64,000 nt of DNA from a virus (taxonomy: Duplodnaviria > Heunggongvirae > Uroviricota > Caudoviricetes): the IMG/VR virus record IMGVR_UViG_3300031787_000054; one strand, 5' to 3'. The translations under genes were made by a program, and so were the position numbers. Positions 13,096 to 47,555 of this stretch are shown here, in pieces. The notes under the pieces were generated by a model. The model saw only the letters and a list, made by a program, of their open reading frames with translations. It was not told the origin of the DNA and did not search any database. Positions within the stretch are counted from its first letter, which is position 1, and each line of letters begins with the position of its first letter.

Positions 13096-13346
13096 TCAAT
13101 ACTCTCTTTTTCTATTAAATCATTAATTCTATCTATTTCATCTCTAAAGCTTTTCATTCGACTTGAATACTCTGATCTAATATAGTTTAATTCGTTTGCT
13201 ATATACTTTAACCTTGAATCCTTTGTGTCTGGTCTATTTAGAATTTGTAAACACGTTTGTATATTCTTTAAACTAACTTCCATTGCTTTTATACTTCTAA
13301 TAAGTTCTTTCTTTCTTTTTCTGGTTGCTAGATTGTGAACACCCAT
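13092..13346 (-). CDS. hypothetical protein
   Basis: 84-aa ORF immediately downstream of a conserved promoter. Confidence 0.4.
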   Translation of the reverse strand: MGVHNLATRKRKKELIRSIKAMEVSLKNIQTCLQILNRPDTKDSRLKYIANELNYIRSEYSSRMKSFRDEIDRINDLIEKESIE

Positions 13347-13360
13347 TAAAACTCCTAGAG

Positions 13361-13396
13361 TTTACTATACCATACTTTTGTTTATTTGTCAAGCAA
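13361..13396 (-). promoter_or_regulatory. conserved promoter copy
   Basis: TTGACA (13392-13387), 17-nt spacer, TATAGT (13369-13364). Confidence 0.6.
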
Positions 13397-19433: not shown

Positions 19434-20417
19434 TTATATCTCCTCTTTAATAACTTTTCTATATATATCTAAAATAATATGGTTTATTTCTATACTATCT
19501 GGTAAATTTGAATGTTGTTTAATTTCAAGTAGTTCTTTTAATCCTTTTTCTATTTCAGGTTGAACTATTGTTGTGAAATCTAATTCTCCTTTTTTAACCA
19601 ATAATATAAAGTCTCTTTGTTCTTTTTCTAACGGAAAAGCTAAAGAACCTGTTGTCAATAATACCTTTCCTTGGTGTATAACACGTAAGGCATGACTGAC
19701 AGCTTTCCAATCTACGCCTTGGTTCATTTTAGCTAATTTACTTCTTGTACCAAATTCATCGTACGCTTTTTGTAAAGAATTGATAACGTAATCAATCGTT
19801 GAAAACATTGGATACTTTTTACCAATAACTTCAAAATGTTCGTCATATCCTTCATTTAAATCATTTTTAACTTTAGGAACTTGAACAATATGAACATATT
19901 CTAATTTAGTTAGTTCTAATAATTGATTTCTAAAATTAAATAACTTATTAGAATAAGGATAAGTTTCTTTATAATTCTTTAAAGTTTCAAGTACCTTCTC
20001 TACTGAACCCATTCTAGTCCCACGAATACCGTATTTAGCTGCTTGTTGTTTAGCATATCCAATAAAACTAACTACATTCTTATGTACTAATTCATTTCTT
20101 TTTGAAACAATCTCATCCCATAGTGGGTGTTTCTCTAGAATAAATTCATCGGGAGTAAACAATAATTCGATTGCTACTGTTTGTCCTTCTTTTAGCATGT
20201 TCATAAACTTATCTAATGAAAATAATTCAGTGTCTATATCAGAGCTGTTATTTTTATTATTTGAATTATTAGTACTTTGATTAATACTTTTATTAAATTT
20301 ACCTAGTAATATGTCGTCAGCAGATGGTAAGTACACGCCTTTATAATCTTTGTCTGATTTCTCGGTATTTAGTCCAAATAAATGTGACCCAGCTATAGCT
20401 TTCATTATTATTTTCAT
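19434..20417 (-). CDS. Pol-beta-superfamily nucleotidyltransferase-fold protein
   Basis: N-terminal GS-x11-DxD (AGSHLFGLNTEKSDKD) plus a downstream acidic DTE, typical of the minimal NTase fold. Interrupted by an Asn/Ser-rich low-complexity insert. Confidence 0.5.
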   Translation of the reverse strand: MKIIMKAIAGSHLFGLNTEKSDKDYKGVYLPSADDILLGKFNKSINQSTNNSNNKNNSSDIDTELFSLDKFMNMLKEGQTVAIELLFTPDEFILEKHPLWDEIVSKRNELVHKNVVSFIGYAKQQAAKYGIRGTRMGSVEKVLETLKNYKETYPYSNKLFNFRNQLLELTKLEYVHIVQVPKVKNDLNEGYDEHFEVIGKKYPMFSTIDYVINSLQKAYDEFGTRSKLAKMNQGVDWKAVSHALRVIHQGKVLLTTGSLAFPLEKEQRDFILLVKKGELDFTTIVQPEIEKGLKELLEIKQHSNLPDSIEINHIILDIYRKVIKEEI

Positions 20418-24291: not shown

Positions 24292-24912
24292 TTAGTTAAA
24301 TGTTACAATTCTAATACCAGAACTACCTAAGCTAAATCCTATCTTATTTCCTGAGAACCAAAAACTTTCTCCGTTTGATAATTCATCAACTTTATGCGAG
24401 TTACTACAACTAGAAGAAGTAAACACTCCTACGTTATTACCATTCACTTTTGTATAATATGATGTGCCAGAAACTTGAGTACATGAACTAGATGAACTTG
24501 AATTAATTGTTACTAACGTACCTGCGTCACCTTCTGCACCTTGAGGACCAACAGGACCTTGTTCTCCATTTTGACCAGCAGGACCTTGTGGACCCACTTC
24601 ACCTTCTGGACCTTGCTCTCCTTGCAGACCTTGTTCACCTTGTAAACCATTTAATCCGTTACAAATAATAATACTGTTTTGATATATGTCACCTTCAGAT
24701 GCAGTTAAGCTATCATCTGTGTCTAAGTAAATGTCTGTACTTTTGCCACCAGTTGGACATAATAATCCCTCATCAATAATACTAATTTCAGATACCAATG
24801 AATGTGCTGATTTACCGTTTTCACCGTTGATACCACTTGAACCTTTTTGTAAAGTTAGTTTTCTTTCTTTTCCACAACTAATAACTAAAAACAGTAACAT
24901 TAATAATTTCAT
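24292..24912 (-). CDS. collagen-triple-helix-repeat lipoprotein
   Basis: Lipobox-like LFLVISCG signal. About 20 G-x-y triplets ([43 protein letters not shown]). Ser-rich C-terminal domain. Confidence 0.6.
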
Positions 24913-25159: not shown

Positions 25160-25468
25160 TTATAATTTTTCCAACTTATCTACTTCTTCTTGTACTTTCT
25201 TAACCTGCTTAGTATAACTGGATACTATGCTATTAAGTATATCTATGCCATATCCTTTATTTTGCGCTTTTTCATTTCTTCTTTTTGTAAAATGTTCTAG
25301 CTTACCTGTTAAATGTTTTAGTTTACTTCTTAGTGATTTCAATTTCTTATTCTTCCCACTAATCTTAGAAGGAGCTGACTCCCTATACTGGTCACCTTGA
25401 ACTAATTCTAATTCTTGTTGTATCTGATCTTTTGTCTTCTTCACTCTTTGTTTTCTTCCAGATTTCAT
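25160..25468 (-). CDS. Lys-rich basic protein
   Basis: 102-aa highly basic helical ORF. Confidence 0.35.
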   Translation of the reverse strand: MKSGRKQRVKKTKDQIQQELELVQGDQYRESAPSKISGKNKKLKSLRSKLKHLTGKLEHFTKRRNEKAQNKGYGIDILNSIVSSYTKQVKKVQEEVDKLEKL

Positions 25469-25620: not shown

Positions 25621-26832
25621 TTAATGAAAGTCTGAGTTATCTTTATCTAAGTATGCTTCTGAAATCCATTTTAATGACTTCCTGTTGTTTGGACAGAACT
25701 TATCATTGTATGATTCAATAGATTTAATAACTACACCTTCTCTGATTTTTTGTTCTGGACAATATACTGAATCACCTTTAGTTAATTCATATACTTTTTC
25801 TTTATTAAAAGGACCTTCGTATAATACTGGAACAACATCAAATCCTCTTTCTTCTGCATACTGACGAACTTCTTTAGGACTTAACCATACGTGTTCACTG
25901 TTATCTAATGTTTTTTTAACATCAAATAAAACAAAATGATGTCTGTCTTTAAATCCATAATCGTAATTCTTTTGGATTCCTTGACCAATTAGCTCACCAT
26001 AAATAGTTTCACCTTCTTTAATCTTATCTTTAGCCTTAACACCTTTTAAAACATTACCATATACATCTTCACCATAGAAACCAGAGTATCCGACTCTGTT
26101 AGTAAGTTCTACGTTATTAGACCCATAACAGAACTCGTATTTAGGTAATAGACCTAGCTTTCCAGAAACGATTCTTTTTAGCATATTTAAGCTCGAAAGA
26201 AGAATGGTCTTAGTATCTCCTTTCCTTGTTTTAAGTTGATTTAAGCACCCAAAGAATTCGTTTAAAGACGGAATTACTGTTGGTAACATAGATGCTCTAC
26301 AGTTACTTCCATGCAATTTTTCCTCAACTACAACTAACTCTCCTTCAGTGAATAGGTTTGGAAACCATTTTACGTTTTCTAGTCCGTTATATTTATGAAA
26401 TAATGGGTTCTCTAGTGGTTTGTTTCTAGATGTTTTAAGTCTAGGAGTAAACTCAGGAGCAGGTGGTTCGTATTTAATAATACCTAACGATTCAGATAAA
26501 TCATCCTCTAGTGAAAACTTAGATACATCAGTAAATTCTGATATTTCTTCTTTAGATATCAGCATACCCTGAGAAGCAAATCCTCTAATACGAATTTGTC
26601 TAACTCTTGAATTATGTAGCTTGATCTTACTTCCTTCTGGAAATAATTTAGATTCTAAGTTATTAGGTAATACTGAATCAATTGGAACGTAGATAATCTC
26701 ATCTCCCACAACGTATTTGTTTTTTGGAATTACCACATGAAATCCATATACGATTGCAATTTCTAATCGTTCAGCGTTTGAGTGAGGATATATCTCTAAT
26801 ATTTGAGTCAGTGGTGTTTTAAATAATGACAT
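25621..26832 (-). CDS. ATP-dependent RNA ligase (Rnl2/Rnl5-like nucleotidyltransferase with N-terminal extension)
   Basis: Motif I lysine in EEKLHGSN at about residue 172, resembling the KxHGxN of the Rnl2 family. About 160 aa of OB-like sequence precede it, as in Deinococcus/Naegleria-type Rnl5. Confidence 0.65.
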   Translation of the reverse strand: MSLFKTPLTQILEIYPHSNAERLEIAIVYGFHVVIPKNKYVVGDEIIYVPIDSVLPNNLESKLFPEGSKIKLHNSRVRQIRIRGFASQGMLISKEEISEFTDVSKFSLEDDLSESLGIIKYEPPAPEFTPRLKTSRNKPLENPLFHKYNGLENVKWFPNLFTEGELVVVEEKLHGSNCRASMLPTVIPSLNEFFGCLNQLKTRKGDTKTILLSSLNMLKRIVSGKLGLLPKYEFCYGSNNVELTNRVGYSGFYGEDVYGNVLKGVKAKDKIKEGETIYGELIGQGIQKNYDYGFKDRHHFVLFDVKKTLDNSEHVWLSPKEVRQYAEERGFDVVPVLYEGPFNKEKVYELTKGDSVYCPEQKIREGVVIKSIESYNDKFCPNNRKSLKWISEAYLDKDNSDFH

Positions 26833-26942: not shown

Positions 26943-26978
26943 TTCACTATATCACATTTTTTGATTTTTGTCAAGAAC
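26943..26978 (-). promoter_or_regulatory. conserved promoter copy upstream of the RNA ligase
   Basis: TTGACA (26974-26969), 17-nt spacer, TATAGT (26951-26946). Confidence 0.6.
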
Positions 26979-27439
26979 TATTTCACGTAAATTAAAATTT
27001 CACTATCACCTGTTACTTTATTGATTATTTCTTCAATCTTAGTCCAATCTCCTCCACCTAATCCACTGCCAATTTTAGGCATAGCTACAATCTTACCTTT
27101 ATCCAAGTACTTTCTTTTAATTTCATTCATACATTGTTCAATAGCATCATAGTCGATATATTGTTTTCCATCATATCCGTATTTATCCTGTGTGAAACAG
27201 TTTAGTATTGTTAGTTTATCGGAAACTTTAACAGGTTGAACCATGCCTAGTAATAAGCCTGTTCCAAAGTTCAACAATTTGTAATGTTCACATAATCCGT
27301 GATAGTTTTCCTTCACAACGGGGTATTTTTCTAACATTGTTTTAGCTACACCTGAGCCAAACTTACTCTGACAGTTTACACCATGAGCGATTACTCCCTC
27401 TGTTACATCAAATAAATCACCTTGTACGTATTTAATCAT
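26978..27439 (-). CDS. macro-domain protein (ADP-ribose binding/hydrolase)
   Basis: GDLF...GVIAHGVNC...GSGVA... and GGGDW fit the macro / Appr-1''-p processing fold. Confidence 0.65.
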   Translation of the reverse strand: MIKYVQGDLFDVTEGVIAHGVNCQSKFGSGVAKTMLEKYPVVKENYHGLCEHYKLLNFGTGLLLGMVQPVKVSDKLTILNCFTQDKYGYDGKQYIDYDAIEQCMNEIKRKYLDKGKIVAMPKIGSGLGGGDWTKIEEIINKVTGDSEILIYVK

Positions 27440-28308
27440 TAGAAATCTCCTTTGGCTACTTGTAGTACTTTCAATCCTTTACTTCTTAACATGTCTACTA
27501 CCTGTTGTCTATCATCTAGAGCAAAGAATATATTATACTTAGGTAGTATTTCGTATTCTAATAAAACTTCTTTAGTGATATTGTCTTGTCTAAAGTCTCC
27601 ACTGTATCGCATAAATAATTCATCATAAGGTATATCATGTTTGTTTAACCATTCTTCTGTTTGTTTTCTGTAATCGTCTGGACGACCTGAACACAATACT
27701 ATTTTCATTCCTGTTTCTTTGTATGTTCTAAGTATATGAATTATTTCCATTATAGGTTTATCTTCTGGCATTGTACTAAAGAATAGTTTCCAATCTTTCT
27801 TTCCTTCTCCACGAACAAAGTTTAATCTATGGCTTAAATCCGCGATAGTACCATCAATATCGCAATATATTGCTTGTTCTTTATCTTTAAGTAATCCCTT
27901 TTCAGTAATGATTATGTCAGCTTCTTCTGAACTAATAGGTTGAAACTTAGACAGGAAAGTATCAAGTGCAGACCTTGCTTCTTTATAACAGGTAATAGTT
28001 GGGTGATTTGTTCTTTGTTCCATTCTTCTTAGACATTCTTTTGTTTGAACAATAAAAGAAAAGATAGCTGTTTCATAACCGTGTTCCTTTGCAACAGAAA
28101 GGTATCTATTTCGTTGTTCTTTACTAAAGTTCATACGATCTACAACAATCTTCTGTCCTGCTTCTATTGCGTCTTTAAACGCTTTTAAATGCCCATCTTT
28201 ACCTTGATCGTCTTGAGATATACGAACATATCCTGTTAACTCCAACTTAGAAGCAAATGTTGACTTACCAGAACCAGGAGGACCAACTAATACAATACAA
28301 TGTTTCAT
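27439..28308 (-). CDS. polynucleotide 5'-kinase / 3'-phosphatase
   Basis: N-terminal P-loop VLVGPPGSGKST. C-terminal HAD phosphatase motif YCDIDGTIAD. Layout matches T4 Pnk. Confidence 0.85.
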   Translation of the reverse strand: MKHCIVLVGPPGSGKSTFASKLELTGYVRISQDDQGKDGHLKAFKDAIEAGQKIVVDRMNFSKEQRNRYLSVAKEHGYETAIFSFIVQTKECLRRMEQRTNHPTITCYKEARSALDTFLSKFQPISSEEADIIITEKGLLKDKEQAIYCDIDGTIADLSHRLNFVRGEGKKDWKLFFSTMPEDKPIMEIIHILRTYKETGMKIVLCSGRPDDYRKQTEEWLNKHDIPYDELFMRYSGDFRQDNITKEVLLEYEILPKYNIFFALDDRQQVVDMLRSKGLKVLQVAKGDF

Positions 28309-29106: not shown

Positions 29107-29451
29107 TCACTTCATTTTGGGTGATAATAATTGTTTTATTTCAAGCTCTACTTTTATTTTTAAAGCTTCACATATTTCATTCTTCACTAAGATATAGTCT
29201 TCATCAAGTAAAAAGAAAGGATATACTCTAGTGTAGCTTTCAAGTTTCGGATCTTTAAATTTATAATTTTCTTTTCCAACTGCGATTATTTTATATACTA
29301 AAGTATAAGTTTCTGGTGATTCAAATTCATTGCCTTTTGTAGTATCGCTTTTTAATACACAATCACCTACCTTAAACTTAGGTTTGATTACTTCAGTCTT
29401 TGGTTCTACTGTACAAGACATTAGCAATAATAGTAACAGTATTCTAATCAT
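29107..29451 (-). CDS. lipoprotein
   Basis: Signal peptide with lipobox-like LLLMSCT. 114 aa. Confidence 0.45.
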   Translation of the reverse strand: MIRILLLLLLMSCTVEPKTEVIKPKFKVGDCVLKSDTTKGNEFESPETYTLVYKIIAVGKENYKFKDPKLESYTRVYPFFLLDEDYILVKNEICEALKIKVELEIKQLLSPKMK

Positions 29452-29825
29452 TATTTACTCCTCTCAATAATACGTTCCATGTTAATCTTAATTGCTTCTT
29501 CAGTTGGAACATAGTCATTGTAAAACTGTACGTTATCTGGTACAAATATTGAGCTATCTCTAAAGTTAGGATTATATCCACGTCTTAACATCTCAGTAAC
29601 TAATTGTTCAAACCTAGTTTCTAAGAACTTCATCTTATTGTAGAAGAACTTAACATGACCTTTACCTAACGTGTAGGTATTAGGAATCTCATCAAAGCTA
29701 AATGACTTACCTTTACGATTAAGTGAGGTACGCAAGTTATTAGGTAGCCTAGCAATCTCACGATACTCAGCTACTAGGTGCTTCGTTGACAATTCTGTAA
29801 CAGGTACTACGTTAATACGTGTCAT
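29451..29825 (-). CDS. denV: pyrimidine-dimer DNA glycosylase (T4 endonuclease V family)
   Basis: Near co-linear similarity to T4 DenV throughout: MTRIN..V.EL...HL.AEYRE, GHV.FFY.K..FL..R, YxPxEA.I. Confidence 0.9.
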   Translation of the reverse strand: MTRINVVPVTELSTKHLVAEYREIARLPNNLRTSLNRKGKSFSFDEIPNTYTLGKGHVKFFYNKMKFLETRFEQLVTEMLRRGYNPNFRDSSIFVPDNVQFYNDYVPTEEAIKINMERIIERSK

Positions 29826-32354: not shown

Positions 32355-33839
32355 TTATGAAGCAGATAATCTTTTTCGAATATCATTTAAAGATTCTTCA
32401 ATTAAAAAGTTACCATTTTCAAAAACTGTTTTCAATAAATTCTCTTTAGAGATATTAGAACTTGTATCATCGGAATATTCTAATACACCAGAATTATTTT
32501 TGAATACTGTCACTTTACCTAACGCTGAATTTTTTGTACCGTCGTCTGTCTTAGGTGCTTTGAATATTGCTTTCTCTGTTCCATTAATTGTAACAGATGT
32601 TGCTTTCATTGCAAAACCTAAAGTGTCTCTTGTGATAAATTGATATGTGTATGAACCGATTCCTAGTACAACATTAGTAGAAGCGAATCCTTTTTGTTTT
32701 AATCTCTCACAAATTTCTTTACATCTTTCAAGTGTAATCGAGTCACCGTAAATAGCTCCGATTTTAGGATTAAGTATTTTGTATCCTTGTGATGATACTG
32801 TTCCACCGAATGTTTCATATAATAATTCAATAACACCTTTGTTCTCAGGTGAACCTAGAGGAGCTTCAGGGTCTCCACATAGAATGTCAGCAGGGTCTCC
32901 ACTATCAGGACGAACCACTACTTTATCTAATGAACCTGCTCCACCATCACGAGCTAGAATTGATTCTTTTAATGAAGGTAAAATGTTTGTTACAACATTA
33001 AATAAATCCCAAGTATCTGACACAATACTAACAATACCTGTTGGATATAGTTCTTCAATGAATCTTCTATATGTTTCTCGTTCGTCTTCATATCCTCCTG
33101 CACACATTACTGAATGTTCGCTTGCTGGAACTGAACAACCAACTAATTCTTTAGTAACATCTGCATTGTAGTATTGTTCTGCATAATTAATTGCGGGTAA
33201 TGTATCTGTTCCAACGAATGATAGTAGGTGTCCAACACCAGATCGTGCTGAGTCTTCAGGTCCACTCTGTCCTCTCATAGAGAAATCGTGTCCTTGAAAT
33301 TCAACGCCAGCAGTAGAGCCTGTTGTCTCCAGTGCGTAATTATCTAATACTGAGCGGTAAGCTTTAGCAATACTTGCTGTTGTCGCTGGTTTCCATAGTA
33401 GTGATGAAAGAATAGTTTCAAGATAATTTGTTAACCAAAAGAATTCATCTTTAGTATTCTCGATTGTCATTACTGGAACTCGAAATGGTACTAACGTTCC
33501 TTCAGCTAATGCTGTTACTTTTAACGGTAAATAACCTAAATCATGTAAGTCTTCTAAGTGTTTTGTTTCAACATTTGGATTAAATAAATAAGCAGATACT
33601 TGACGCTTGTATTCATTAATAATTTCTTCTTTCTGTTTACTAAAGAACTGTGAATTAAATAATTCGTTTAATTCTTTTAATGCACCTTGTGTTCCAAAAG
33701 CTACAACGTTCTCAATTCCGTTGGCATGTTTACCTGAACGTGGTGTCCATGTACTGTATACCTTTGATGTGTTCTTTGGATACTGTACTCTATGACTAAG
33801 CTTGTAACCGTCACATGCTAATGTTGCAATTAAATTCAT
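32355..33839 (-). CDS. nadV: nicotinamide phosphoribosyltransferase family protein (NadV/Nampt-like)
   Basis: 494 aa. N-terminal LACDGYKLSHRVQYP and overall Nampt-like organisation. Confidence 0.8.
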   Translation of the reverse strand: MNLIATLACDGYKLSHRVQYPKNTSKVYSTWTPRSGKHANGIENVVAFGTQGALKELNELFNSQFFSKQKEEIINEYKRQVSAYLFNPNVETKHLEDLHDLGYLPLKVTALAEGTLVPFRVPVMTIENTKDEFFWLTNYLETILSSLLWKPATTASIAKAYRSVLDNYALETTGSTAGVEFQGHDFSMRGQSGPEDSARSGVGHLLSFVGTDTLPAINYAEQYYNADVTKELVGCSVPASEHSVMCAGGYEDERETYRRFIEELYPTGIVSIVSDTWDLFNVVTNILPSLKESILARDGGAGSLDKVVVRPDSGDPADILCGDPEAPLGSPENKGVIELLYETFGGTVSSQGYKILNPKIGAIYGDSITLERCKEICERLKQKGFASTNVVLGIGSYTYQFITRDTLGFAMKATSVTINGTEKAIFKAPKTDDGTKNSALGKVTVFKNNSGVLEYSDDTSSNISKENLLKTVFENGNFLIEESLNDIRKRLSAS

Positions 33840-34060
33840 TATTTATCTCCTTTGGTAAAATCTTTACCTGTTAATTTCTTTGACGCTTTACTAAAAAACG
33901 GAATACCAAATGCAACAATAGCACATATTATATGTACTGTAATACCTATTACTCTAAATTCTTCATGAGTCATAGGAGTTAGTATCAATAGTAGACCAAA
34001 GAAAAACAAACTACTAGCTATTGTTATTCCTAATTTTAGTTCTCTTTTAACTTCTTTCAT
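33839..34060 (-). CDS. small membrane protein
   Basis: 73 aa, two TM helices. Start overlaps the nadV stop. Confidence 0.4.
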   Translation of the reverse strand: MKEVKRELKLGITIASSLFFFGLLLILTPMTHEEFRVIGITVHIICAIVAFGIPFFSKASKKLTGKDFTKGDK

Positions 34061-34212
34061 TTTTCTCTTTTATTAATCTATTAAATCCTTTAAATAAAAG
34101 ATACAATAAAGATACTATCCCTAGTATCGGGAGTTCGTTTGATTTATGGCTTAACATAAAAGGTAAGATAAAACCAAAGTACGCTCCTAAAAATAAAATT
34201 ATAATAAATAGT

Positions 34213-34422
34213 TTATTCATTATGTTTACTCCAATGTTTTATATTATCTAAATACAATTTATAGTTTTGATTTAGTTCATAGACTATACCATTGTGTTTA
34301 TTACTTAATGATAATTTAACTTTAATATATCTATTGTTTACATCACGATAAGTTACTCTATGTATATGTACAAATAAGTCGCTCTTTTCGTTTGTATATG
34401 TTCCAGGATATATCATAATCAC
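34213..34422 (-). CDS. hypothetical protein
   Basis: 69-aa ORF. Confidence 0.3.
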   Translation of the reverse strand: MIMIYPGTYTNEKSDLFVHIHRVTYRDVNNRYIKVKLSLSNKHNGIVYELNQNYKLYLDNIKHWSKHNE

Positions 34423-34487
34423 CTTTTGTTAGATGACGATAGCTCGTCAACCCGACAACTCCTAGATGGTATGTCGCACCATATTAA

Positions 34488-35342
34488 TTACTTAATGTTA
34501 ATAAAGGGAATAGCGTTACTTCCTGTCATAGTTGGAAGTCTTCCGTCCCAACGTTGGATAGCTTCGTACTGGATTAATTCAGATGTTAGTGTTTTTAATT
34601 TTAAAGCATTAGACTTTGCCTCTGCTTCAGCTATTGCTAACATTGATTTAGCTTTACCTTCAGCTTCTGCAATTTGTTTTTTAGCTTGTGCTTCAGCTTC
34701 TCTTAGTTCGTTCTCTCTTTGTTGTGCTCTTTGTGTTGCTTCAATCTTAGAGTTAAGAGCAGATACAACGTTGTCTGGTAATCTAATAGAACCAATTAAA
34801 TATACTTTCTCAATAATAATACCATGCGGTTTTAAACTCTCTCTAACTAATCCTTCAACCTTTAGAAATAAGTCTGTCTTACCAGAACCATAAACAGATT
34901 CAACAGTCATTGTAGATGCTACAGTATTTAGTGCATCTCTTAAAGCGTTCTTTACTACAACAGCTTTTATTTCATCAATACCTTTCCTATACTTTTGGAA
35001 TAGTTTGCTGATCTTAGAATCATCAACAGTGAATGTTACACCCATATCAATGTTACAAGATAGACCTTCTGACGTTTGAAAAGTAAAAGATTCATCTGTT
35101 TCAGAGTCTTCCATTTCGTCTCTCGTGTAGATTTTTGTTTGTTGGAAAGTAGGGAAGATGTATAGTTCCTCATTGATCCCAACCCAATATCTACCTACAC
35201 CTAGTACTTCGTGGTCAACACCCTTACTACCGCCTAGTAGGTAAATCTTAACACCAACATTACCTGCTGGAACTTTAGAACAAGACGTTGTGAATAACGT
35301 CAGTAACAATACAATAAAAAAACCCTTCAGAAAATTAATCAT
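34488..35342 (-). CDS. SPFH/band-7 (stomatin/prohibitin-like) membrane protein
   Basis: N-terminal TM, SPFH-like core, Ala/Glu-rich coiled-coil tail (EAEAQAKKQIAEAEGKAKSMLAIAEAEAK). Confidence 0.55.
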   Translation of the reverse strand: MINFLKGFFIVLLLTLFTTSCSKVPAGNVGVKIYLLGGSKGVDHEVLGVGRYWVGINEELYIFPTFQQTKIYTRDEMEDSETDESFTFQTSEGLSCNIDMGVTFTVDDSKISKLFQKYRKGIDEIKAVVVKNALRDALNTVASTMTVESVYGSGKTDLFLKVEGLVRESLKPHGIIIEKVYLIGSIRLPDNVVSALNSKIEATQRAQQRENELREAEAQAKKQIAEAEGKAKSMLAIAEAEAKSNALKLKTLTSELIQYEAIQRWDGRLPTMTGSNAIPFINIK

Positions 35343-36106
35343 TCAACTTCTCCTTTGAAATTAAATACTCGTTTAATGCCTTCTTCAAATAATACAAGAG
35401 AACCTCTAGAATAAATACCATGTGTTGTGTATAGATATACTTCGGAAGCTCCCATTTTATATAACTGTTTAGCACATTGAATAAAGGTAGCTCCTCCATC
35501 ACAAATGTCGTCCACTATTAAACACTTTTTATTTGTTATAGGATATAGTGAGTCGGCTTCTAATGAAAGAATCTTACCTGTTGATTGTTCTCTTACCTTG
35601 TTGAAATAAATACTAGGTATATTAGTTAATGAATTTAACTTACTATAACGAACACTAGCTCCTTTGTCTGGATAGATAAGTACATCTGTTCCAGTTAATA
35701 AAGTAACAGTTTGAATGTATTTGTAAGGTATTTCATTTATACAATTAGCTATACCATGTTTATCGGAATGAGCATCAATCAAATACACAGTACTAAAGTT
35801 AAGTGAATTAATCAAATGAGCAAATGGGTGAATACCGAATGTCGAATCATTACTTACCTCCTTATCCTGTCTTCCGTATGGAAGATAGTTAATACGTAGT
35901 GTTCCTAGTTTTTCTGAAACAGAGCCAATCATAAATCGTAATTGAGCGATTGTTATAAGCTCTGACTCTTTATCAAAGTCCCATTCAATTACGTTATTAA
36001 ACGTTATTTTCATTTTGTTATACACATCTTCTGGGAGTTTCCAGACTTGTGTACAAGTATCAGGGAATGTTGTTGGAGTTACGTTGTAACCGTTTAGTGT
36101 TATCAT
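35339..36106 (-). CDS. phosphoribosyl-diphosphate synthetase-like (Prs/PRTase-fold) protein
   Basis: PRPP-binding motif CLIVDDICDGGATF. Shorter (255 aa) than housekeeping Prs. Confidence 0.65.
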   Translation of the reverse strand: MITLNGYNVTPTTFPDTCTQVWKLPEDVYNKMKITFNNVIEWDFDKESELITIAQLRFMIGSVSEKLGTLRINYLPYGRQDKEVSNDSTFGIHPFAHLINSLNFSTVYLIDAHSDKHGIANCINEIPYKYIQTVTLLTGTDVLIYPDKGASVRYSKLNSLTNIPSIYFNKVREQSTGKILSLEADSLYPITNKKCLIVDDICDGGATFIQCAKQLYKMGASEVYLYTTHGIYSRGSLVLFEEGIKRVFNFKGEVE

Positions 36107-37257: not shown

Positions 37258-37830
37258 TTACCTCCTTAGTTCATATTCAAATCTTAGTTTTCTTTTTTGT
37301 TTTAGTAATTTAGCAACACCATTCTTGATAAGTTCTTGCAACTTAAGTGCTGTCTTTGTGTACTGATTATCTTTCTTAGCGTATAACTGTCTTAAGTGTA
37401 TCTTCTTTCCATTAAGCTCAACAACTCTTGGATTGCTGTTATTCTCTTCACCAACATACTTAAAGTTACTAGCTTTATATATTGTTCCTATGTGTCCAAC
37501 GTTGGGGTCTGTATATGAAAGAATAATAGGTGGGCAGTCTTTATTCTTTAATATGTTTAATGTCTTTGCTAAGAAGAATGATTCAGTATTCTTTTCTGTG
37601 TTATCAATTAAACAAAATCTTCTTAGTTCAATATACTTATCGCTATCTATATTCTTACCCATTGGTTTACCATATAAAGCAACACCTATTAGGTTATTAT
37701 TTAGGTCACGTAAAGTAAATATAAACTTCTGTTGTAGTGATCTATATGATTTTGAATAGTGCCATGTGATAATGAAGTCCATAATTTCTTTAGTTAATGT
37801 TTCTTCTTTTACAATGTATTTAGACTTCAT
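37258..37830 (-). CDS. hypothetical protein
   Basis: 190-aa ORF. Confidence 0.4.
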   Translation of the reverse strand: MKSKYIVKEETLTKEIMDFIITWHYSKSYRSLQQKFIFTLRDLNNNLIGVALYGKPMGKNIDSDKYIELRRFCLIDNTEKNTESFFLAKTLNILKNKDCPPIILSYTDPNVGHIGTIYKASNFKYVGEENNSNPRVVELNGKKIHLRQLYAKKDNQYTKTALKLQELIKNGVAKLLKQKRKLRFEYELRR

Positions 37831-40317: not shown

Positions 40318-40532
40318 TATTCAGTAGTTTGTGTTACTCTCTTAACTCTTAATGTATGTGTATCAGGATTTGCAATAACTATTAACACATCACCTAACTT
40401 AAATCTGTTATAAATACTAAGTACTGATCTTTCATTATTAAACTCTACTGTATCAAATGTATTATCTAGGTCATCATAATCCTTAACACACCTTTTCACT
40501 TGAACTATACTACCTTTTTTAAATGTTCTCAT
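40278..40532 (-). CDS. small beta-rich protein (KKGSIV family)
   Basis: 84-aa ORF. Confidence 0.35.
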   Translation of the reverse strand: MRTFKKGSIVQVKRCVKDYDDLDNTFDTVEFNNERSVLSIYNRFKLGDVLIVIANPDTHTLRVKRVTQTTEYWWVHPLEVDLIA

Positions 40533-41089
40533 ATTGTTACACCCTTCATAATTTTTTGTACATTTCTCAACACCTTCTTATCGAAGTCACTACACAAATA
40601 CTCACATACATCAGTTAAATCTTGAATGATGTTATCCTCTAAGTATAATGTTGTATCTAGTATTGGGATATCCTTCAAGCTTCTTATGTCACGTTTAAGA
40701 AGAAAGAATAAGTCTGACCTCTTAGATTGATCTAAAACATTCCACAACAATACTAGACAACCAGCGTGTGCTAGTATCTCTTCGTGTAATATATCTACTC
40801 TATCTTGTACTTTATGTTTGATATTATAAAGAGATGGTCTATCTAATCTATCCTTGTGACCAGTTGAATGTATTAACTCGTGCATCAGTGTCACATAACC
40901 CCAATTCTTATTAGAAGAAAGCTTCTCGTTTATTACTATAATATCAAGTGGAATCATATACTTACCAAATGAATCTATCTTATCACTGTTAAATATCTTA
41001 GGGAAAACAAAGTCATCATAGTTTAATGAACCACCTATTAGTTTATCCAATGCGTGTAGTTGAATGTTCATTTGTTCTCCTTTGTTCAT
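40529..41089 (-). CDS. HExxH zinc-metallopeptidase-like protein
   Basis: LMHELIHSTGH motif. 186 aa. Overlaps the ATP-grasp gene by 47 nt (translational coupling). Confidence 0.5.
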   Translation of the reverse strand: MNKGEQMNIQLHALDKLIGGSLNYDDFVFPKIFNSDKIDSFGKYMIPLDIIVINEKLSSNKNWGYVTLMHELIHSTGHKDRLDRPSLYNIKHKVQDRVDILHEEILAHAGCLVLLWNVLDQSKRSDLFFLLKRDIRSLKDIPILDTTLYLEDNIIQDLTDVCEYLCSDFDKKVLRNVQKIMKGVTI

Positions 41090-41843
41090 TGATGTATTGT
41101 ATGATATTGTTAACCCATATATCTAAGTTAAGTGAGTTAAGTCCTGGACTAGAATTAACTTCAATAACATAGAACCGTTTCTTATCCCTATCAAATATAA
41201 TATCAACTCCACCGAATAATAAACCCAAACCTTGTACAGCTTTAATACACATTTGTTGTGCATTTAAATTACATGTTGATATCTCTGGATTACATTTTCT
41301 GAATTGACAGTTATGTGATTTATATATCTTAACACTAGAATCATTAGGTATCTTCTCATACACACCTAGAATCTTACCATTGAATACATGTACTCTATAC
41401 TCTTTCTTATTAACAATAGGTCTTGTAATATATAAATCAGTATCTCTTATTGTGTTGTCATATCTAACAACCATATCTCTACCACGTACATAGAAATATC
41501 CGTTAGTATCTTTGTATCTGTTAATATCAAATGTTGATCTATCACCTTCAATTAAATCAAAGTATTTAGGTGTTCTAACTCCTTCGATCTGTTTTAGATT
41601 CTTAATCATATCGTGTTTGTTAGATGCTTTACGCACAGCTTGTTTATCATTAAGTGTTAATGTCTGGTTGCTGTCATTGGTTCTACTCTCGCCCCATCTA
41701 ACGAATACATTGCTATGTTTAGGAGTCATGTATTCTCTAACCCTGCGTACTTTCCTAAAGGCTCTTGAATTTTTTAATTTAAGATACAATAACTTACCTG
41801 TCTTACATGATTTATTTGAGTAAGAAAAGTTTAATGTTGTCAT
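41043..41843 (-). CDS. ATP-grasp family ligase (RimK/GshB-like)
   Basis: C-terminal ATP-grasp signature EYRVHVFNGKILGV ... GLLFGGVDIIFDRDKKRFYVIEVNSSPGL. Confidence 0.6.
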   Translation of the reverse strand: MTTLNFSYSNKSCKTGKLLYLKLKNSRAFRKVRRVREYMTPKHSNVFVRWGESRTNDSNQTLTLNDKQAVRKASNKHDMIKNLKQIEGVRTPKYFDLIEGDRSTFDINRYKDTNGYFYVRGRDMVVRYDNTIRDTDLYITRPIVNKKEYRVHVFNGKILGVYEKIPNDSSVKIYKSHNCQFRKCNPEISTCNLNAQQMCIKAVQGLGLLFGGVDIIFDRDKKRFYVIEVNSSPGLNSLNLDIWVNNIIQYINEQRRTNEHSTTRIG

Positions 41844-42073
41844 ACAGCATCTCCTAATTTTATAAATAGTTCTTGAGAGTATATTGATATACTGCCACGT
41901 AATAATCTATTTTCGTATCCTTTTATTGGACAAAGTTTAAATATTCTTATATTGGTTGGTAATATATTATACACTAAAAAAATCCTCCCTTGAAGAAGTG
42001 AACCAAAACTTGTTGGTGAAACCTTAATATATAAACAACCTTTCACTAATTCATTTACCTTAAGTACTTTCAT
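41840..42073 (-). CDS. 77-aa small protein, paralog family member A
   Basis: Tandem 77-aa ORF related to the next two (MKVLKVNELVKGCLYIKV / ...LFIKLGDAV). Confidence 0.45.
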   Translation of the reverse strand: MKVLKVNELVKGCLYIKVSPTSFGSLLQGRIFLVYNILPTNIRIFKLCPIKGYENRLLRGSISIYSQELFIKLGDAV

Positions 42074-42303
42074 TCTACACTCCCTATTTCAATGAACTCA
42101 GGAAGTTTATCACCTGGTATATAGTGTGTTCTAGTAAATCCTCTGATTATATAAGGTCTTAACACAATTATTTTCTTTTGTTCAGGGTTAGATGTAATCT
42201 CTGTAACTATAAATATTTCACCTGACATAAGATAACCATTACCATTTACCTTCATATATACTTTGTTTACTAGTAGTTCTGGATATTTAATTACTTTCTT
42301 CAT
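42070..42303 (-). CDS. 77-aa small protein, paralog B (C-terminal EFIEIGSVE)
   Basis: Shares its N-terminus with paralog A and its C-terminal nine residues with paralog C. Confidence 0.45.
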   Translation of the reverse strand: MKKVIKYPELLVNKVYMKVNGNGYLMSGEIFIVTEITSNPEQKKIIVLRPYIIRGFTRTHYIPGDKLPEFIEIGSVE

Positions 42304-42533
42304 TCTACACTCCCTATTTCAATGAACTCTGCTCTAGTATCAGCTGGAACATAATAACAATCCTCTATTTTATTACCAACATAACTTCTTGTTTTTTTGC
42401 GATAAGGAGTGATTTCTCTAATGTAAAAATAATTAGTTAGACAAAGGTAATGATCACTATTTAATTTCATATACAGTTTACCCATACACAAATCTTCGTA
42501 TTTAAGAATCTTCATTACTACCTCCACACTCAC
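42300..42533 (-). CDS. 77-aa small protein, paralog C (C-terminal EFIEIGSVE)
   Basis: C-terminus identical to paralog B. Tandem arrangement with ATGA overlaps. Confidence 0.45.
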   Translation of the reverse strand: MSVEVVMKILKYEDLCMGKLYMKLNSDHYLCLTNYFYIREITPYRKKTRSYVGNKIEDCYYVPADTRAEFIEIGSVE

Positions 42534-42735
42534 ATACTAGTTTTAATAATTGTCTTTCTTTGAAGTTTGAGTATGATCTTTGAAAGGTTTCACCTTCTCC
42601 TCCTAAGTATATATATTCAACTTTGTCACTCCAAGGATTAGAGTATGTTACATAAATTAATCTGTAAGTATTACTTCGACTGAAGTAAGGATTAGTACCT
42701 TCCGTGGTAAGATAAATACTATTTGATTTAATCAT
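42502..42735 (-). CDS. 77-aa small protein (unrelated sequence, same length)
   Basis: Fourth consecutive 77-aa ORF. Y/S-rich, C-terminal CECGGSNEDS. Confidence 0.4.
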   Translation of the reverse strand: MIKSNSIYLTTEGTNPYFSRSNTYRLIYVTYSNPWSDKVEYIYLGGEGETFQRSYSNFKERQLLKLVCECGGSNEDS

Positions 42736-42736
42736 A

Positions 42737-43018
42737 CTAAGCCCTTTGTTTAAACTTCAATCTCTTCTTTGTCTTTCTAATCCTATCTTTAATAATCTCT
42801 AATACATTACCTATAGATTCATATTCTGCTGGATTATAGAAGTCCCATTGTTCATCAGGTATTACACCTGTTTCTTGGAACTCATACATTGTATCACTGA
42901 GTGAATACATGTCTTCAATAGCTGAGTCTAAAGCCTCCAACAAATCATCATCTGTTAGATGTTCTACGTCCCTTGCTTTCAAGGGAGTATCTTCTGTTTG
43001 ATGTTCTTGTTTTATCAT
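42737..43018 (-). CDS. strongly acidic small protein
   Basis: 93 aa. D/E-rich over the first 75 residues, basic tail. Confidence 0.4.
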   Translation of the reverse strand: MIKQEHQTEDTPLKARDVEHLTDDDLLEALDSAIEDMYSLSDTMYEFQETGVIPDEQWDFYNPAEYESIGNVLEIIKDRIRKTKKRLKFKQRA

Positions 43019-43033
43019 ACAATCCTCCTTTAA

Positions 43034-44107
43034 TTAAGCATAAGAAACACTGTCGTCATTGTTATAAGCATCATACAATAGCTTAAGTTTAGTATCGTAA
43101 TCCATACTGTTTAATACATCTTGTTCATCTTTAGATAAGGTTAAACAATATTGCAACAAAACAGATGACATAGCACTCACTACTGTCATGTCGATCTCAC
43201 TAGCTTTAGATGTCGAAGACGTTGACGATTCCTCTCTTCCGTTCGAGTAAAGCCAGTTCGAACACGAGCTTGATTGTTGACTGGCAAACCTTCTTGAAGA
43301 AGAATATGATTGACGATGAACAAATGTTCTATTAATATCTGTAACACTAATAGGTTCACCTGTGATAGCATCAACTCTCAATAGTTTATTATCGAATAAA
43401 GGGAAGCATAATGGCTTCTTCCATTTCAATTTCTCACAAGTATTCTTAATGATATCATCACTTGTACAAATAATAAAGCCACCGATCTCTTCAACTTGAG
43501 CAATAAAAAGTGGAGCATTGTATTTAAACACATCAAGAATTCTTCTACCATCTGATTGTTTACTAAGAGTAGCAACACCCCAATAACCCTCTAGAGCATC
43601 AGTTGTTTCCTGAATCTTACTTGAGTTATTAGCAACATCATTCTTTAGGTACTCATTCAAGATTGTTTCAGAATCACACGTTGAAATAATATTAGTTAAC
43701 TTATGTGAGTTATTGATAACTCCATTATGAATCAATGCTGTGTCATCAATAATAAAAGGGTGAACATTCTGAAATGTTCTAGCACAAGTAGCCCATCTTG
43801 TATGGAATATAATTGATTTAACATTCTCGAAATTAATATTTCCTGTAGATGAATACTCTGTTTCATCAAGAGCTGTAGGAACTTTATCTTTAATGACACC
43901 CTGATACTTAGCTAACTCAGTCAGTGGTTTTAAGAAAGCTTTAGACACATCAAGAAATCTTTCAGAAAACATATTCCCGTCACCATCAATAGCCGCATAA
44001 CCTAATCCGTGATTATCAGATTTAGTCATGTCAGCTTTAGATGCGAACATAAATTGTTTTGCTTTCAAACCATTTTGAATACCAAACATCACCATTACTT
44101 TACACAT
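43034..44107 (-). CDS. class-II (Ntn) glutamine amidotransferase domain protein
   Basis: Cys at position 2 (MCKV...) as the Ntn nucleophile. HTRWATCARTFQNVHPF...ALIHNGVINN resembles GATase-2 / AsnB N-terminal motifs. Confidence 0.6.
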   Translation of the reverse strand: MCKVMVMFGIQNGLKAKQFMFASKADMTKSDNHGLGYAAIDGDGNMFSERFLDVSKAFLKPLTELAKYQGVIKDKVPTALDETEYSSTGNINFENVKSIIFHTRWATCARTFQNVHPFIIDDTALIHNGVINNSHKLTNIISTCDSETILNEYLKNDVANNSSKIQETTDALEGYWGVATLSKQSDGRRILDVFKYNAPLFIAQVEEIGGFIICTSDDIIKNTCEKLKWKKPLCFPLFDNKLLRVDAITGEPISVTDINRTFVHRQSYSSSRRFASQQSSSCSNWLYSNGREESSTSSTSKASEIDMTVVSAMSSVLLQYCLTLSKDEQDVLNSMDYDTKLKLLYDAYNNDDSVSYA

Positions 44108-44116
44108 ACTTACTCC

Positions 44117-45607
44117 TTATGCAAATTTTAAAATACGGTTATTAATATAATCTAAAGATTGACTTGGGATACCTTCGATATAATTAGGAATCGTTTCAAC
44201 TTTTCTAGGAGAAGATTCTAATTTAGAAGTAGCATTAACAATAGGTAAAATAAAGTTAATCCAATTTAACATATCATCAGTATCTACTGTGCCCTCATGA
44301 ACTCTAATCTCTAATGTTTTATGTCGAGCATAAGACATAGGATTGATAACTAAGTATCTGTCAGATCGTCTACCTCCTGATGTCATGTTTGCTTTGTATT
44401 GATAGTCTTCAATGTTCGGTGACTCAGTTGGTCTACAATAAGTGTTTGATCTTCTTTGTTCTGGTTGTGACTCAACTAAAAACTTTTGAAGCTTAACTAG
44501 ATTATGAAATGCAATTGCTACATCTCTCTTTCTCATATCAAAATGAACATGCAATCCACAACTATTATTTACTGAACACTGTGCTTCTTGTAATGCAACA
44601 CCTAATCTATTTAGGATTTCGATACGATTGTTTTCTGGAACTAATACTCTGATTTCGTGAGTGAAAGGGTATCCATCTGAAGTTCTAAGTGAACCATCTG
44701 ATGTAACATTAGTCCATTTCTGTAACTTGTTTTTAATTAACACCTCTTTTAATTTACCAACGTCAGACTTAGAAATTAATTCAATCTCAATACCAATGAA
44801 TGAATCGTTGTTGTATGGTTTCTTTTCATCATTGATTAGATTCTTTTGAATGTGTTCATACATTTTTAAATACTGTCCATTAGTTTGAGCAACACCATTG
44901 TACAATTCAATAGCACCAAACCTAGTTTCTTTCTTTGTCGGACTAGACTTAACTGCTAATCTTTGTTCACGAAGTTTTTTATTAAGAGCTTGATGTGCTT
45001 TTAATTTAATAGCCTTCAAATCTTTCTTAACGATAGTCACACCATTCTGAACTACTTCAACAGTAGGCATTGGAATTTCTACTTCCAATAGTTTCTTCCC
45101 TACTGTACGTGATGCTCTAACTTTAAGTTCTTGATTCATTAACTTACTTAGCTTCTCACGATTCTCTTTAATCTTTTTAGATAAAGTATTTTCTTTATCA
45201 GTTTTACCTTTAACACCTAGTCGTTGTTGTTCCTTATCAAGAGCTTCTAACTTCTTAGTTTCTTTTAGTAAAGTGAAGAACATTGTGTTCTTATTTTCTT
45301 TAACACTAAATACTTTAATCTTTAAGTCTTTAGGAAATATAACTTTCTTGTATCTTTCAAATACTAAGTTATCTTTCAACACAATGAACTCTGTTCCTTC
45401 TTTAATTAATATCTTTTTACTATCTAACGTAAATGAAATATCTTCGTTCAATATACAACGAACATATTTATTGTTCTTATCAAACTCACCAATGTATTCA
45501 ATCTCTTTTCCAACAAAATAAGGTCCGAGTTTATTCTCTTTGTCCTTATTAATTTTGTAGATAGCACCTAACTCAAATACTTTTGTTTCCATATTACTTA
45601 CCTCCAA
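44117..45607 (-). CDS. glutamine-synthetase-like amidoligase (carboxylate-amine ligase fold) with N-terminal Lys-rich domain
   Basis: C-terminal half carries FIGIEIELIS, CGLHVHFD and LEIRVHEG. These resemble the GxExE / HxH / ExR signatures of the GCS2/YbdK/PafA-type amidoligases. Confidence 0.5.
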   Translation of the reverse strand: MEVSNMETKVFELGAIYKINKDKENKLGPYFVGKEIEYIGEFDKNNKYVRCILNEDISFTLDSKKILIKEGTEFIVLKDNLVFERYKKVIFPKDLKIKVFSVKENKNTMFFTLLKETKKLEALDKEQQRLGVKGKTDKENTLSKKIKENREKLSKLMNQELKVRASRTVGKKLLEVEIPMPTVEVVQNGVTIVKKDLKAIKLKAHQALNKKLREQRLAVKSSPTKKETRFGAIELYNGVAQTNGQYLKMYEHIQKNLINDEKKPYNNDSFIGIEIELISKSDVGKLKEVLIKNKLQKWTNVTSDGSLRTSDGYPFTHEIRVLVPENNRIEILNRLGVALQEAQCSVNNSCGLHVHFDMRKRDVAIAFHNLVKLQKFLVESQPEQRRSNTYCRPTESPNIEDYQYKANMTSGGRRSDRYLVINPMSYARHKTLEIRVHEGTVDTDDMLNWINFILPIVNATSKLESSPRKVETIPNYIEGIPSQSLDYINNRILKFA

Positions 45608-46960: not shown

Positions 46961-47143
46961 TTAACCATCTATTACCTCCAATGGTATCATGAATAAAATA
47001 GTATCATACAATGAAACCTGTTCATAAGTTCTAATTTTAGATTCAGTGACTGATTGAAAGTAACCATATACACCATATTTGTCTCGTCTATTAAATTTAC
47101 AATACATACCATCATATCCCTTATGTATAACTAAGTAGTACAT
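46961..47143 (-). CDS. MYYL-family small protein, paralog 1
   Basis: MYYLVIHKGYDGMYCKF...ILFMIPLEVIDG. Confidence 0.45.
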   Translation of the reverse strand: MYYLVIHKGYDGMYCKFNRRDKYGVYGYFQSVTESKIRTYEQVSLYDTILFMIPLEVIDG

Positions 47144-47334
47144 GTTACCTCCATTGGTATCATGAATAAAATATTTTCTTTAAAACTGAATTGACATAAA
47201 TCTCCTAATGGTATATTATTCACTGTTGCTTTAACAGTGACAGGTCGGAAGTACCCACTTAAAGTATAATTATTTTCACCAATTACTTTACAGTACATAG
47301 CTTCACATGTATCATGTATAATTAAATAGTACAT
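47131..47334 (-). CDS. MYYL-family small protein, paralog 2
   Basis: MYYLIIHDTCEAMYCKV...ILFMIPMEVTCTT. Confidence 0.45.
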   Translation of the reverse strand: MYYLIIHDTCEAMYCKVIGENNYTLSGYFRPVTVKATVNNIPLGDLCQFSFKENILFMIPMEVTCTT

Positions 47335-47555
47335 ACAACCTTCATTGGTATGACATAACTAATAAATTGTTTTCGTATAAATGAAATACCTATTAGGTGT
47401 TCATTTAAATAACAACCGACACTATACATACCAGAATATTTATCATGTGTAACTACGAGGTCTTTACAAAAACTATAGCCTATACTATCATCATTAGAAC
47501 TTCGCCATATCACTATGTAATACATCTTTACTCTCCTCTGATAAAGGGAATTCAA
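47322..47555 (-). CDS. MYYL-family small protein, paralog 3
   Basis: MYYIVIWRSS...ISYVIPMKVVCTI. Confidence 0.45.
   Translation of the reverse strand: MNSLYQRRVKMYYIVIWRSSNDDSIGYSFCKDLVVTHDKYSGMYSVGCYLNEHLIGISFIRKQFISYVIPMKVVCTI

Follow-up and report, generated by a model that had tools for sequence, protein, structure and literature searches.

Iyer, Abhiman, Burroughs and Aravind reportedly predicted in 2009 a phage cassette made up of an amidoligase, a class-II glutamine amidotransferase (GATase) and an ATP-grasp ligase. Passages in two later papers (PMC10580990; PMC11706807) trace the prediction to this work (Iyer et al., 2009, Mol Biosyst 5:1636). The trio is annotated in the cultured phages SU7, TC6, PA11, O4 and CVT22. 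In SU7 the gene order is amidoligase, GATase, two small open reading frames (ORFs), ATP-grasp, two more small ORFs, gamma-glutamyl cyclotransferase (GGCT) and primase, and in TC6 it is GATase, COOH-NH2 ligase, a hypothetical gene, amidoligase and ATP-grasp. The same trio, plus an AIG2/GGCT-like protein, is annotated in UFV-P2/LUZ24-like phages (PMC3890496), and the ATP-grasp and GATase of SU10 have been detected as early proteins by mass spectrometry (PMC4281155). Published speculation on the role of the cassette includes cell-wall modification, superinfection exclusion, secondary metabolites and auxiliary metabolic genes for nitrogen; a further lead, to polyamines, proved unrelated (PMC11898732). 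Here we describe a locus of this kind in a 64,000-nucleotide stretch of DNA (referred to below as the window) from the IMG/VR virus record IMGVR_UViG_3300031787_000054, assigned to the Caudoviricetes. An amidoligase, a stand-alone class-II glutaminase and a RimK-like ATP-grasp ligase follow one another there on the minus strand, accompanied by small ORFs and an HExxH zincin, and homology identifies the locus as a divergent representative of this widespread, experimentally uncharacterised early-gene cassette known from computational work. An earlier, sequence-only reading of the same DNA took the larger arrangement to be uncharacterised, but the enzyme trio is known in many phages and was predicted in 2009, and the small ORFs are lineage-specific. 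Its statement that phage amidoligase and GATase pairs had been predicted computationally was sound.

The comparison covers 83 loci, 79 of them viral contigs. A single-sequence locus search of viral contigs gave no matches, so an alignment-based search was needed; such a scan of IMG/VR for the amidoligase confirmed 227 relatives, and 79 loci were kept. All ORFs of the 83 loci were extracted and iterative searches were carried out with each window protein. In choosing start sites, an ATG with a Shine-Dalgarno (SD) site was preferred over the start of a longer ORF. The ORFs listed in the sequence-only reading are all present on the minus strand at the same positions, but it counted five enzyme-like genes where we count four. 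For these four, profile searches upheld its fold and family calls and assigned none to an unrelated fold.

The amidoligase (44117-45592, minus strand, as are all genes of the cassette) belongs to the Amidoligase_2 family (PF12224). Its start is most likely the SD-supported ATG at 45592, giving 491 aa instead of the 496 aa of the full ORF. The 496-aa form matches PF12224 with an E value of 8.5e-15 over residues 290-455 only, and phrog_2443 with 8e-20. The catalytic domain spans approximately residues 255-491, preceded by a lineage-specific extension of ~250 aa, for which the model is beta-rich and includes a long helical hairpin. When the amidoligase profile was searched against PDB sequences, no solved structure was detected and the N-terminal extension gave only coiled-coil noise. 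As this was uninformative, a fold search was used instead, in which the top match was the YbdK-like carboxylate-amine ligase 1tt4 (score 12.5), followed by plant glutamate-cysteine ligase (GCL; 11.3), glutamine synthetases (GS; 11.3-10), gamma-glutamylmethylamide synthetase (GmaS; 10.0), Dop (9.3) and PafA (8.5). The protein has the GS/GCL carboxylate-amine ligase fold. It did not group with the Pup-ligase family, and in the NCBIfam scan its match to the glutamate-cysteine ligase model was not significant (E 0.067). Homologues are 63% identical on an 84.9-kb contig (L001/L005), the closest relative, and 25-40% identical in many other cases; identity to any cultured phage is below 30%. The Pfam entry for PF12224 reportedly describes the partner of the family as a GAT-like thiol peptidase, or as AIG2 in Firmicutes.

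Nine nucleotides downstream of the amidoligase is the gene for the glutaminase (43034-44107, 357 aa), a stand-alone class-II protein of the N-terminal nucleophile (Ntn), glutamine amidotransferase type, which begins Met1-Cys2 and carries a linker rich in Ser and a C-terminal tail that is acidic and helical. Its match to GATase_6 (E 1e-5, 26.0 bits) is just under the gathering cut-off of 27. GlmS-type domains are closer to it (NCBIfam GlmS N-terminal domain, E 2.8e-11) than EgtC (E 0.03), and it aligns to E. coli GlmS (1xff) over HTRWAT...HNGxIxN. Cys2, Arg104 (GlmS Arg73), Asn128-Gly129 (the oxyanion hole) and Asp145 (GlmS Asp123) are invariant in 64/64 distinct phage glutaminases, so that every residue used by GlmS/PurF-type domains to bind and hydrolyse free glutamine, or a gamma-glutamyl head group, is kept. 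On the strength of these invariant residues and the GlmS alignment, the protein is predicted to be a working glutamine or gamma-glutamyl-amide hydrolase domain, and not a generic peptidase.

The third enzyme is a RimK-family ATP-grasp ligase of 266 aa (41043-41843), which matches Pfam RimK above the gathering score (E 1.4e-8) and phrog_2599 (E 4e-32). The nearest NCBIfam models are the alpha-L-glutamate ligases MptN, RimK and CofF, all of which score far under their cut-offs. The RimK equivalog models in particular give 25 bits against a cut-off of 331 (NF007764) and 34.5 against 143 (TIGR00768). The protein is thus a RimK relative at family level only, in the RimK/MptN/CofF alpha-L-glutamate-ligase branch. 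Comparison with the maturases of graspetides/microviridins, which are ribosomally synthesised and post-translationally modified peptides, did not point to a relationship (MvdC, E 0.089), and the small ORFs are not conserved with the ATP-grasp gene. Homologues were found in 175 phage records and, among the records listed, are often annotated beside an amidoligase or Gn_AT_II gene. Identity is 87% in the closest relative and below 30% to any cultured phage.

Across the loci, the association of the amidoligase with the glutaminase is strict. A glutaminase is present in 72 of the 83, on the same strand as, and directly downstream of, the amidoligase in 72/72, with a gap of at most 100 bp in 56 loci and at most 1 kb in all 72. 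In distant podovirus-like contigs the pair stands alone, beside what appear from their sequences to be terminase and portal genes. The ATP-grasp gene is found in 14/83 loci, which are the closest relatives, and lies downstream of the glutaminase in all of them; it is also found in one contig from a metagenome-assembled genome. Further ligases come and go. A short second amidoligase follows ATP-grasp in L003, L012, L015, L016 and L059, a short amidoligase precedes the main one in L006, the Saccharibacteria-binned contig L086 is arranged like L016, and a COOH-NH2 ligase lies ~5 kb upstream in L006, L010, L016 and L086. The window itself yielded no GGCT/AIG2, COOH-NH2_lig or second amidoligase. 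Since these optional parts vary between lineages, their absence leaves membership of the cassette intact. The window has, in one string, a PF12224 ligase of GS/GCL fold, a Cys2 glutaminase downstream of it and a RimK-like ATP-grasp.

The distribution of the ATP-grasp gene bears on whether there is a single module at all. The pair could form one unit, with ATP-grasp and zincin being independent host-takeover or anti-restriction proteins. The presence of ATP-grasp in only 14/83 loci is consistent with this, as are its separation from the pair by four NAD-salvage genes in L003, the probable ArdC/PolyVal anti-restriction type of the zincin, and the packing of ~20 genes into one string in which a simple scan gives only weak consensus sites. 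Wherever it is present, however, ATP-grasp shares the strand of the pair and lies downstream of it, immediately adjacent in four loci, and the linkage is seen in cultured phages that are unrelated as well. We regard this as the least probable of the explanations weighed here.

Our favoured reading, held with moderate confidence, is that the cassette carries out ATP-dependent, glutamine-linked amide-bond chemistry by means of a two-subunit amide synthase and the ATP-grasp ligase, with the small ORFs lying outside the machine. The amidoligase would activate a carboxylate with ATP to give an acyl phosphate, and the glutaminase would deliver ammonia to it from glutamine, the pair acting as a two-subunit glutamine-dependent amide synthase. 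The ATP-grasp ligase would attach an amino acid (probably glutamate) to a carboxylate of that same substrate. Candidates for the substrate are small molecules, cell-envelope precursors and host macromolecules. This reading is preferred because the two-gene unit would be functionally complete, the glutaminase is GlmS-type and the pairing is as strict as that of enzyme subunits. That the enzymes form amide bonds had already been proposed from the sequence alone; this is reasonable, and agrees with the earlier computational predictions.

The main rival, in our view rather unlikely, is a cycle in which gamma-glutamyl groups are added and removed. Here the amidoligase would join the gamma-carboxylate of glutamate to an amine (a small molecule, a polyamine or a protein lysine), ATP-grasp would extend the alpha-carboxylate, and the glutaminase-like protein would hydrolyse the amide later. 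Precedents are EgtA/EgtC in ergothioneine synthesis, PuuA/PuuD for putrescine and PafA/Dop in pupylation. The best fold matches of the amidoligase that have a known reaction (GCL, GS, GmaS and Dop/PafA) all activate the gamma-carboxylate of glutamate. The invariant residues of the glutaminase hold a free alpha-amino and alpha-carboxyl group, which gamma-Glu-NH-R would fit as well as glutamine does, and related cassettes include GGCT (SU7) or an AIG2/GGCT-like protein (UFV-P2). Against this, the minimal unit would consist of a ligase and a hydrolase that undoes its product, so that an extra step is required; the glutaminase is closer to the GlmS type than to EgtC; and a search seeded with the SU7 GGCT found none in the window or the 83 loci.

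Between the glutaminase and ATP-grasp genes lie the small ORFs. Those nearest to ATP-grasp are three paralogs: c (42300-42515), b (42070-42303, 77 aa) and a (41840-42073, 77 aa). Paralogs b and c are related with an E value of 4e-14, and a and b with ~3e-4 (35% identity). Paralog a ends in FIKLGDAV, and its C-terminal codons (...KLGDAV) hold the AGGAG SD site of the ATP-grasp gene. The fourth ORF (42502-42735, 77 aa) is outside this family, has a homologue (43%) in the closest relative only, and its final codons hold the GGAGG SD site of paralog c (...ECGGSNEDS over GGAGG). The sequence-only reading had described four consecutive ORFs of exactly 77 aa, three of them paralogs and two ending in the identical EFIEIGSVE. 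Sequence comparison supports the three paralogs, the fourth ORF being unrelated, and b and c do share this ending. The length of 77 aa holds for three of the ORFs; paralog c reaches it only from an upstream GTG with no SD site, while its ATG at 42515 is preceded by GGAGG and public gene calls give 71 aa. The pattern of 77 aa four times over is therefore partly an artefact.

These small proteins had been proposed as the substrates of the cassette, with the ligases modifying or conjugating the 71/77-aa proteins through a C-terminal glutamate in a Pup-like or RimK/S6-like manner and the HExxH peptidase acting in their processing. A C-terminal glutamate is the site on which both RimK and PafA act, two of the paralogs end in this residue and sit between the ligase genes, and other lineages also have small ORFs in the same slot, some of them tandem paralogs. 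The paralogs themselves are not shared. A profile built from them finds no other member in the window (best E 0.2) and, among 1.84 billion representative proteins, only the three themselves and one marginal repeat protein; clustering at 90% adds only a near-identical twin genome. Judged by these searches, they are ORFans confined to the species of the source phage. The closest relative keeps ATP-grasp (87%), the glutaminase (71%), the amidoligase (63%), the 93-aa protein discussed below (67%) and the 77-aa ORF (43%), and has no homologue of the three paralogs. In four relatives (L006, L016, L059 and L086) the slot is empty, with gaps of 1-27 nt, and the slot ORFs of L004, L007, L009/L077, L010 and SU7 show no detectable relation to the window paralogs. 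Remote homology to the slot ORFs of L009/L077 and L004/L007 was rejected on an hhalign probability of 0.1%. The slots of L009 (11514-11854) and L077 (7475-7821) each contain two tandem paralogous small ORFs of 55-60 aa, ending in FRLRFV/FRLEFV, which are unrelated in sequence to the paralogs of the window.

The shared C-terminus has a simpler source in the DNA. The codons for EFIEIGSVE and the stop lie in an exact 31-nt repeat, GAGTTCATTGAAATAGGGAGTGTAGAATGAA, at 42299-42329 and 42069-42099 on the minus strand; the two copies are 230 nt apart, which is one gene unit. Outside the repeat, the genes for b and c are ~57% identical in nucleotide sequence, and within it the identity reaches every synonymous site, which points to duplication, gene conversion or a constraint at the RNA level, and not to selection on an acidic tail. 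The repeat holds GGGAG six bases ahead of an ATG that overlaps the TGA stop (an ATGA junction), and thereby provides the next gene with both its ribosome-binding site and its coupling junction. Window-wide, G[EDSG] occurs within the last seven residues of 19/61 genes that abut the next start, compared with 3/41 genes followed by a spacer of at least 15 nt and 9.6% of internal heptamers. The shared acidic C-terminus is thus best explained as a by-product of the duplicated junction. In addition, the model of paralog b is an SH3-like barrel of five strands, the last of which is formed by residues 69-75, with two free residues after it; in the model the EFIEIGSVE C-terminus is a core strand and not a free tail. 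Neither a GG[QE] motif nor a disordered tag is found, the third paralog ends in ...GDAV and not in glutamate, and the zincin is absent from all but one relative. Taken together, the ORFan status, the absence from the closest relative, the empty slots, the junction repeat and the modelled barrel strand tell against the small ORFs as substrates or tags, which we consider very unlikely. Modelling and comparison instead suggest that the three paralogs are SH3-like ORFans which arose by local tandem duplication, lineage-specific and outside the conserved machine.

Several considerations weigh against the favoured reading of an amide synthase with the small ORFs left outside. The class-II amidotransferases that are characterised are, to our knowledge, fused to their synthase domain, and amidoligase-GATase fusions were not found among the loci examined. 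The ammonia-donor role of the glutaminase is putative, and the stand-alone class-II homologue EgtC is a gamma-glutamyl hydrolase. Gamma-glutamyl intermediates are suggested by the gamma-glutamyl cyclotransferase that the phiEco32-like and LUZ24-like cassettes carry. Literature searches gave no experimental characterisation of any cassette member, only genome annotations and speculation. As for the small ORFs, the model of paralog b, built from three sequences, is of only moderate confidence (pLDDT 72.5), and the absence of these ORFs in relatives is no proof that the enzymes of the source phage spare them.

Directly after the glutaminase, the window has an acidic helical protein of 93 aa (42737-43018), which is conserved only in the closest relative, where it has the same position and 67% identity. 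It matches no Pfam, PHROG or NCBIfam family, and it is better conserved in that relative than the amidoligase is (67% vs 63%). It may serve as an accessory factor, or be an acidic protein with no connection to the cassette.

Some public variants of the paralogs end in ...SVEWKYLR, which raised the possibility of TGA recoding. This was rejected, as TGA ends 21/122 ORFs in the window and long genes are intact under code 11, and the variants are put down to gene calling. The public proteins concerned (P0056-P0058, from the twin 84,458-bp contig) have 3-5 extra residues, the gene caller having read TGA as Trp. A second tandem pair of small paralogs, beginning MYYL(V/I)IH..., lies at 46961-47334 on the minus strand (E 2e-11), with a possible third copy at 47322-47555. 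In the early region of the window, small ORFs have often been duplicated in tandem.

Downstream of ATP-grasp is the gene for the HExxH zincin, a protein of probable ArdC/PolyVal type of 180 aa (40529-41071). The 186-aa ORF matches MPTase-PolyVal (PF18818) over ~60 residues with 24.8 bits (E 2.5e-5), below the gathering score of 27.5, and phrog_7245 'anti-restriction protein' with an E value of 1.7e-7. The motif is HELIH, with HEIIH at the same place in the closest relative, where the protein is 46% identical. The overlap of its reading frame with the ATP-grasp gene, pointed out earlier, is real; measured from the ATG at 41071, which has an aaggag SD site, it is 29 nt and not 47 nt. The earlier call of an HExxH metallopeptidase holds, while linkage to the cassette is confined to the source phage and one relative: among the 83 loci the zincin occurs in L001/L005 only, and elsewhere there is one weak phage match. 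Its position is that at which other relatives carry the second short amidoligase. The zincin is a lineage-specific neighbour whose membership of the cassette is uncertain. The ArdC/polyvalent-protein zincin family is associated with anti-restriction, and the protein may act independently of the ligases, for example against host restriction.

A connection with DNA modification has to be considered because of a gene on the same strand, 2.7 kb downstream (37258-37830, minus strand), which encodes a Mom-family protein (PF25680, E 1.9e-29), the family of the phage Mu-type adenine-N6 DNA-modification enzyme. The ligases and glutaminase might amidate or extend the N6-adenine adduct made by Mom, or act on another hypermodified base. 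A Mom gene also lies 3-4 kb downstream in L001, L004, L007/L008 and L012, and in viral metagenomes clusters for thymidine hypermodification are accompanied by genes for amidoligases and amidotransferases (PMC8989533). Mom is missing, on the other hand, from the examined flanks of at least nine other ATP-grasp-type loci and from ~60 pair-only loci, many of which are beside terminase genes, and the scanned ORFs of the window included no hydroxymethylase, 5-HMUDK or aGPT-Pplase. The Mom protein of Mu is not known to need such partners in order to act. A link between cassette and Mom is possible but weak, and the role of a DNA-modification accessory is highly improbable. It is also quite improbable that the cassette has been re-targeted in this one lineage, with the SH3-like paralogs or the 93-aa protein serving as glutamylated or amidated substrates or adaptors and the zincin replacing the second ligase as a processing step, which would make a phage protein-tagging pathway, or, as a second reading, that the cassette and Mom act together on DNA.

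The source phage is uncultured and lytic, with a genome of ~84.5 kb and ~31% GC. A search of a phage collection gave no near-identity DNA match to the window among deposited phage genomes. Minus-strand genes run from ~52.6 kb down to 8 kb of the window, and the early region holding the cassette is a string of ~20 tightly packed genes. The window yielded no tRNA genes and no PADLOC matches. An NAD-salvage set (32355-36106, minus strand) comprises NAMPT (32355-33839) and a phosphoribosyltransferase resembling phosphoribosyl pyrophosphate synthetase (35339-36106), which flank an SPFH/Band7 protein; these NAD genes and an NMNAT-like gene are also found in L003, between GATase and ATP-grasp (12486-15517). 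An RNA-repair cluster, also on the minus strand, includes an RNA ligase (25621-26832), a Macro domain protein (26978-27439), a PNKP kinase-phosphatase (27439-28308) and an RlaP nucleotidyltransferase (19434-20417). The family-B DNA polymerase appears to be split (12289-15542, minus strand) into a 268-aa ORF, with a weak PolB-exonuclease/RNase H-like match (E ~1e-4), and a 717-aa exonuclease/polymerase ORF. The two are separated by an 84-aa ORF (13092-13346) which resembles the small ORF at 25160-25468. A collagen-triple-helix-repeat protein is encoded among the early genes, and the window also has genes for a pyrimidine-dimer glycosylase of DenV type, for a dUTPase and for a T4 gp1-like deoxynucleoside monophosphate kinase; the stretches concerned are 24292-24912, 29451-29825 and 11186-12281, all on the minus strand.

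Among phage enzyme pairs with no assigned function, that of amidoligase and glutaminase is one of the more widespread, and it is also present in cultured E. coli and Pseudomonas phages. Since 2009 it has had nothing beyond a computational prediction, and solving any one member would explain all. To this the window adds a very divergent member, in which the core is the ordered ligase-glutaminase pair followed by ATP-grasp, and the small ORFs, zincin, GGCT and extra ligases are lineage-specific parts. The window is not the best place to solve the cassette, since its phage has not been cultured and metagenomes are the only source of it. It also carries a caution, in that an SD/ATGA coupling junction, and not a protein motif, can lie behind identical C-terminal peptides in phage genes arranged in tandem.

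Among the known systems, pupylation differs in that PafA and Dop are weaker fold matches to the amidoligase than GCL and GS. Pup is a disordered tag ending in GGQ/GGE, whereas the small ORFs of the window have IGSVE or LGDAV at their ends and SH3-like barrels as their models, and no relative has them. For the glutamylation of S6 by RimK, the distance is that between the 25 bits of the window ATP-grasp and the equivalog cut-off of 331. The likeness of the zincin to the ArdC/polyvalent-protein family (PF18818) consists of the HExxH motif and the profile match; here it is a stand-alone protein of 180 aa, under the Pfam gathering score, and without the ssDNA-binding N-domain of ArdC. EgtA/EgtC, PuuA/PuuD and the gamma-glutamyl cycle (GCL, GshB and GGCT) combine a GS/GCL-fold ligase, a glutaminase-like hydrolase and an ATP-grasp enzyme, as here, but the window proteins are not significant members of these families by sequence (GCL, E 0.067; EgtC, E 0.03) and no GGCT was found in the window. 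With MurT/GatD, which amidates the iso-glutamate of lipid II, and with AsnB, GlmS and PurF, the shared logic is ATP-dependent activation of a carboxylate together with a glutaminase that has all the glutamine-binding residues. The folds differ, as MurT has a Mur-ligase fold and GatD is a class-I GATase, whereas the ligase of the cassette has the GS/GCL fold and its glutaminase is a stand-alone class-II protein.

The closest counterpart is the phage PF12224, GATase and ATP-grasp cassette of phiEco32-like phages (SU7, SU10, KBNP1711), LUZ24-like phages (UFV-P2, tf, PaP3), PA11/TC6-like phages and OM43 and Poseidoniales viruses. The window differs from it in its low identity, in the ~250-aa extension, in the lack of any GGCT/AIG2 or COOH-NH2_lig match, and in having the zincin in place of the second amidoligase. 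The same three families are nevertheless present, on the same strand, in the order amidoligase, GATase and ATP-grasp, and in an early or replication-proximal region, as in the known phage cassette, and in SU7 and UFV-P2 too there are small hypothetical ORFs between GATase and ATP-grasp.

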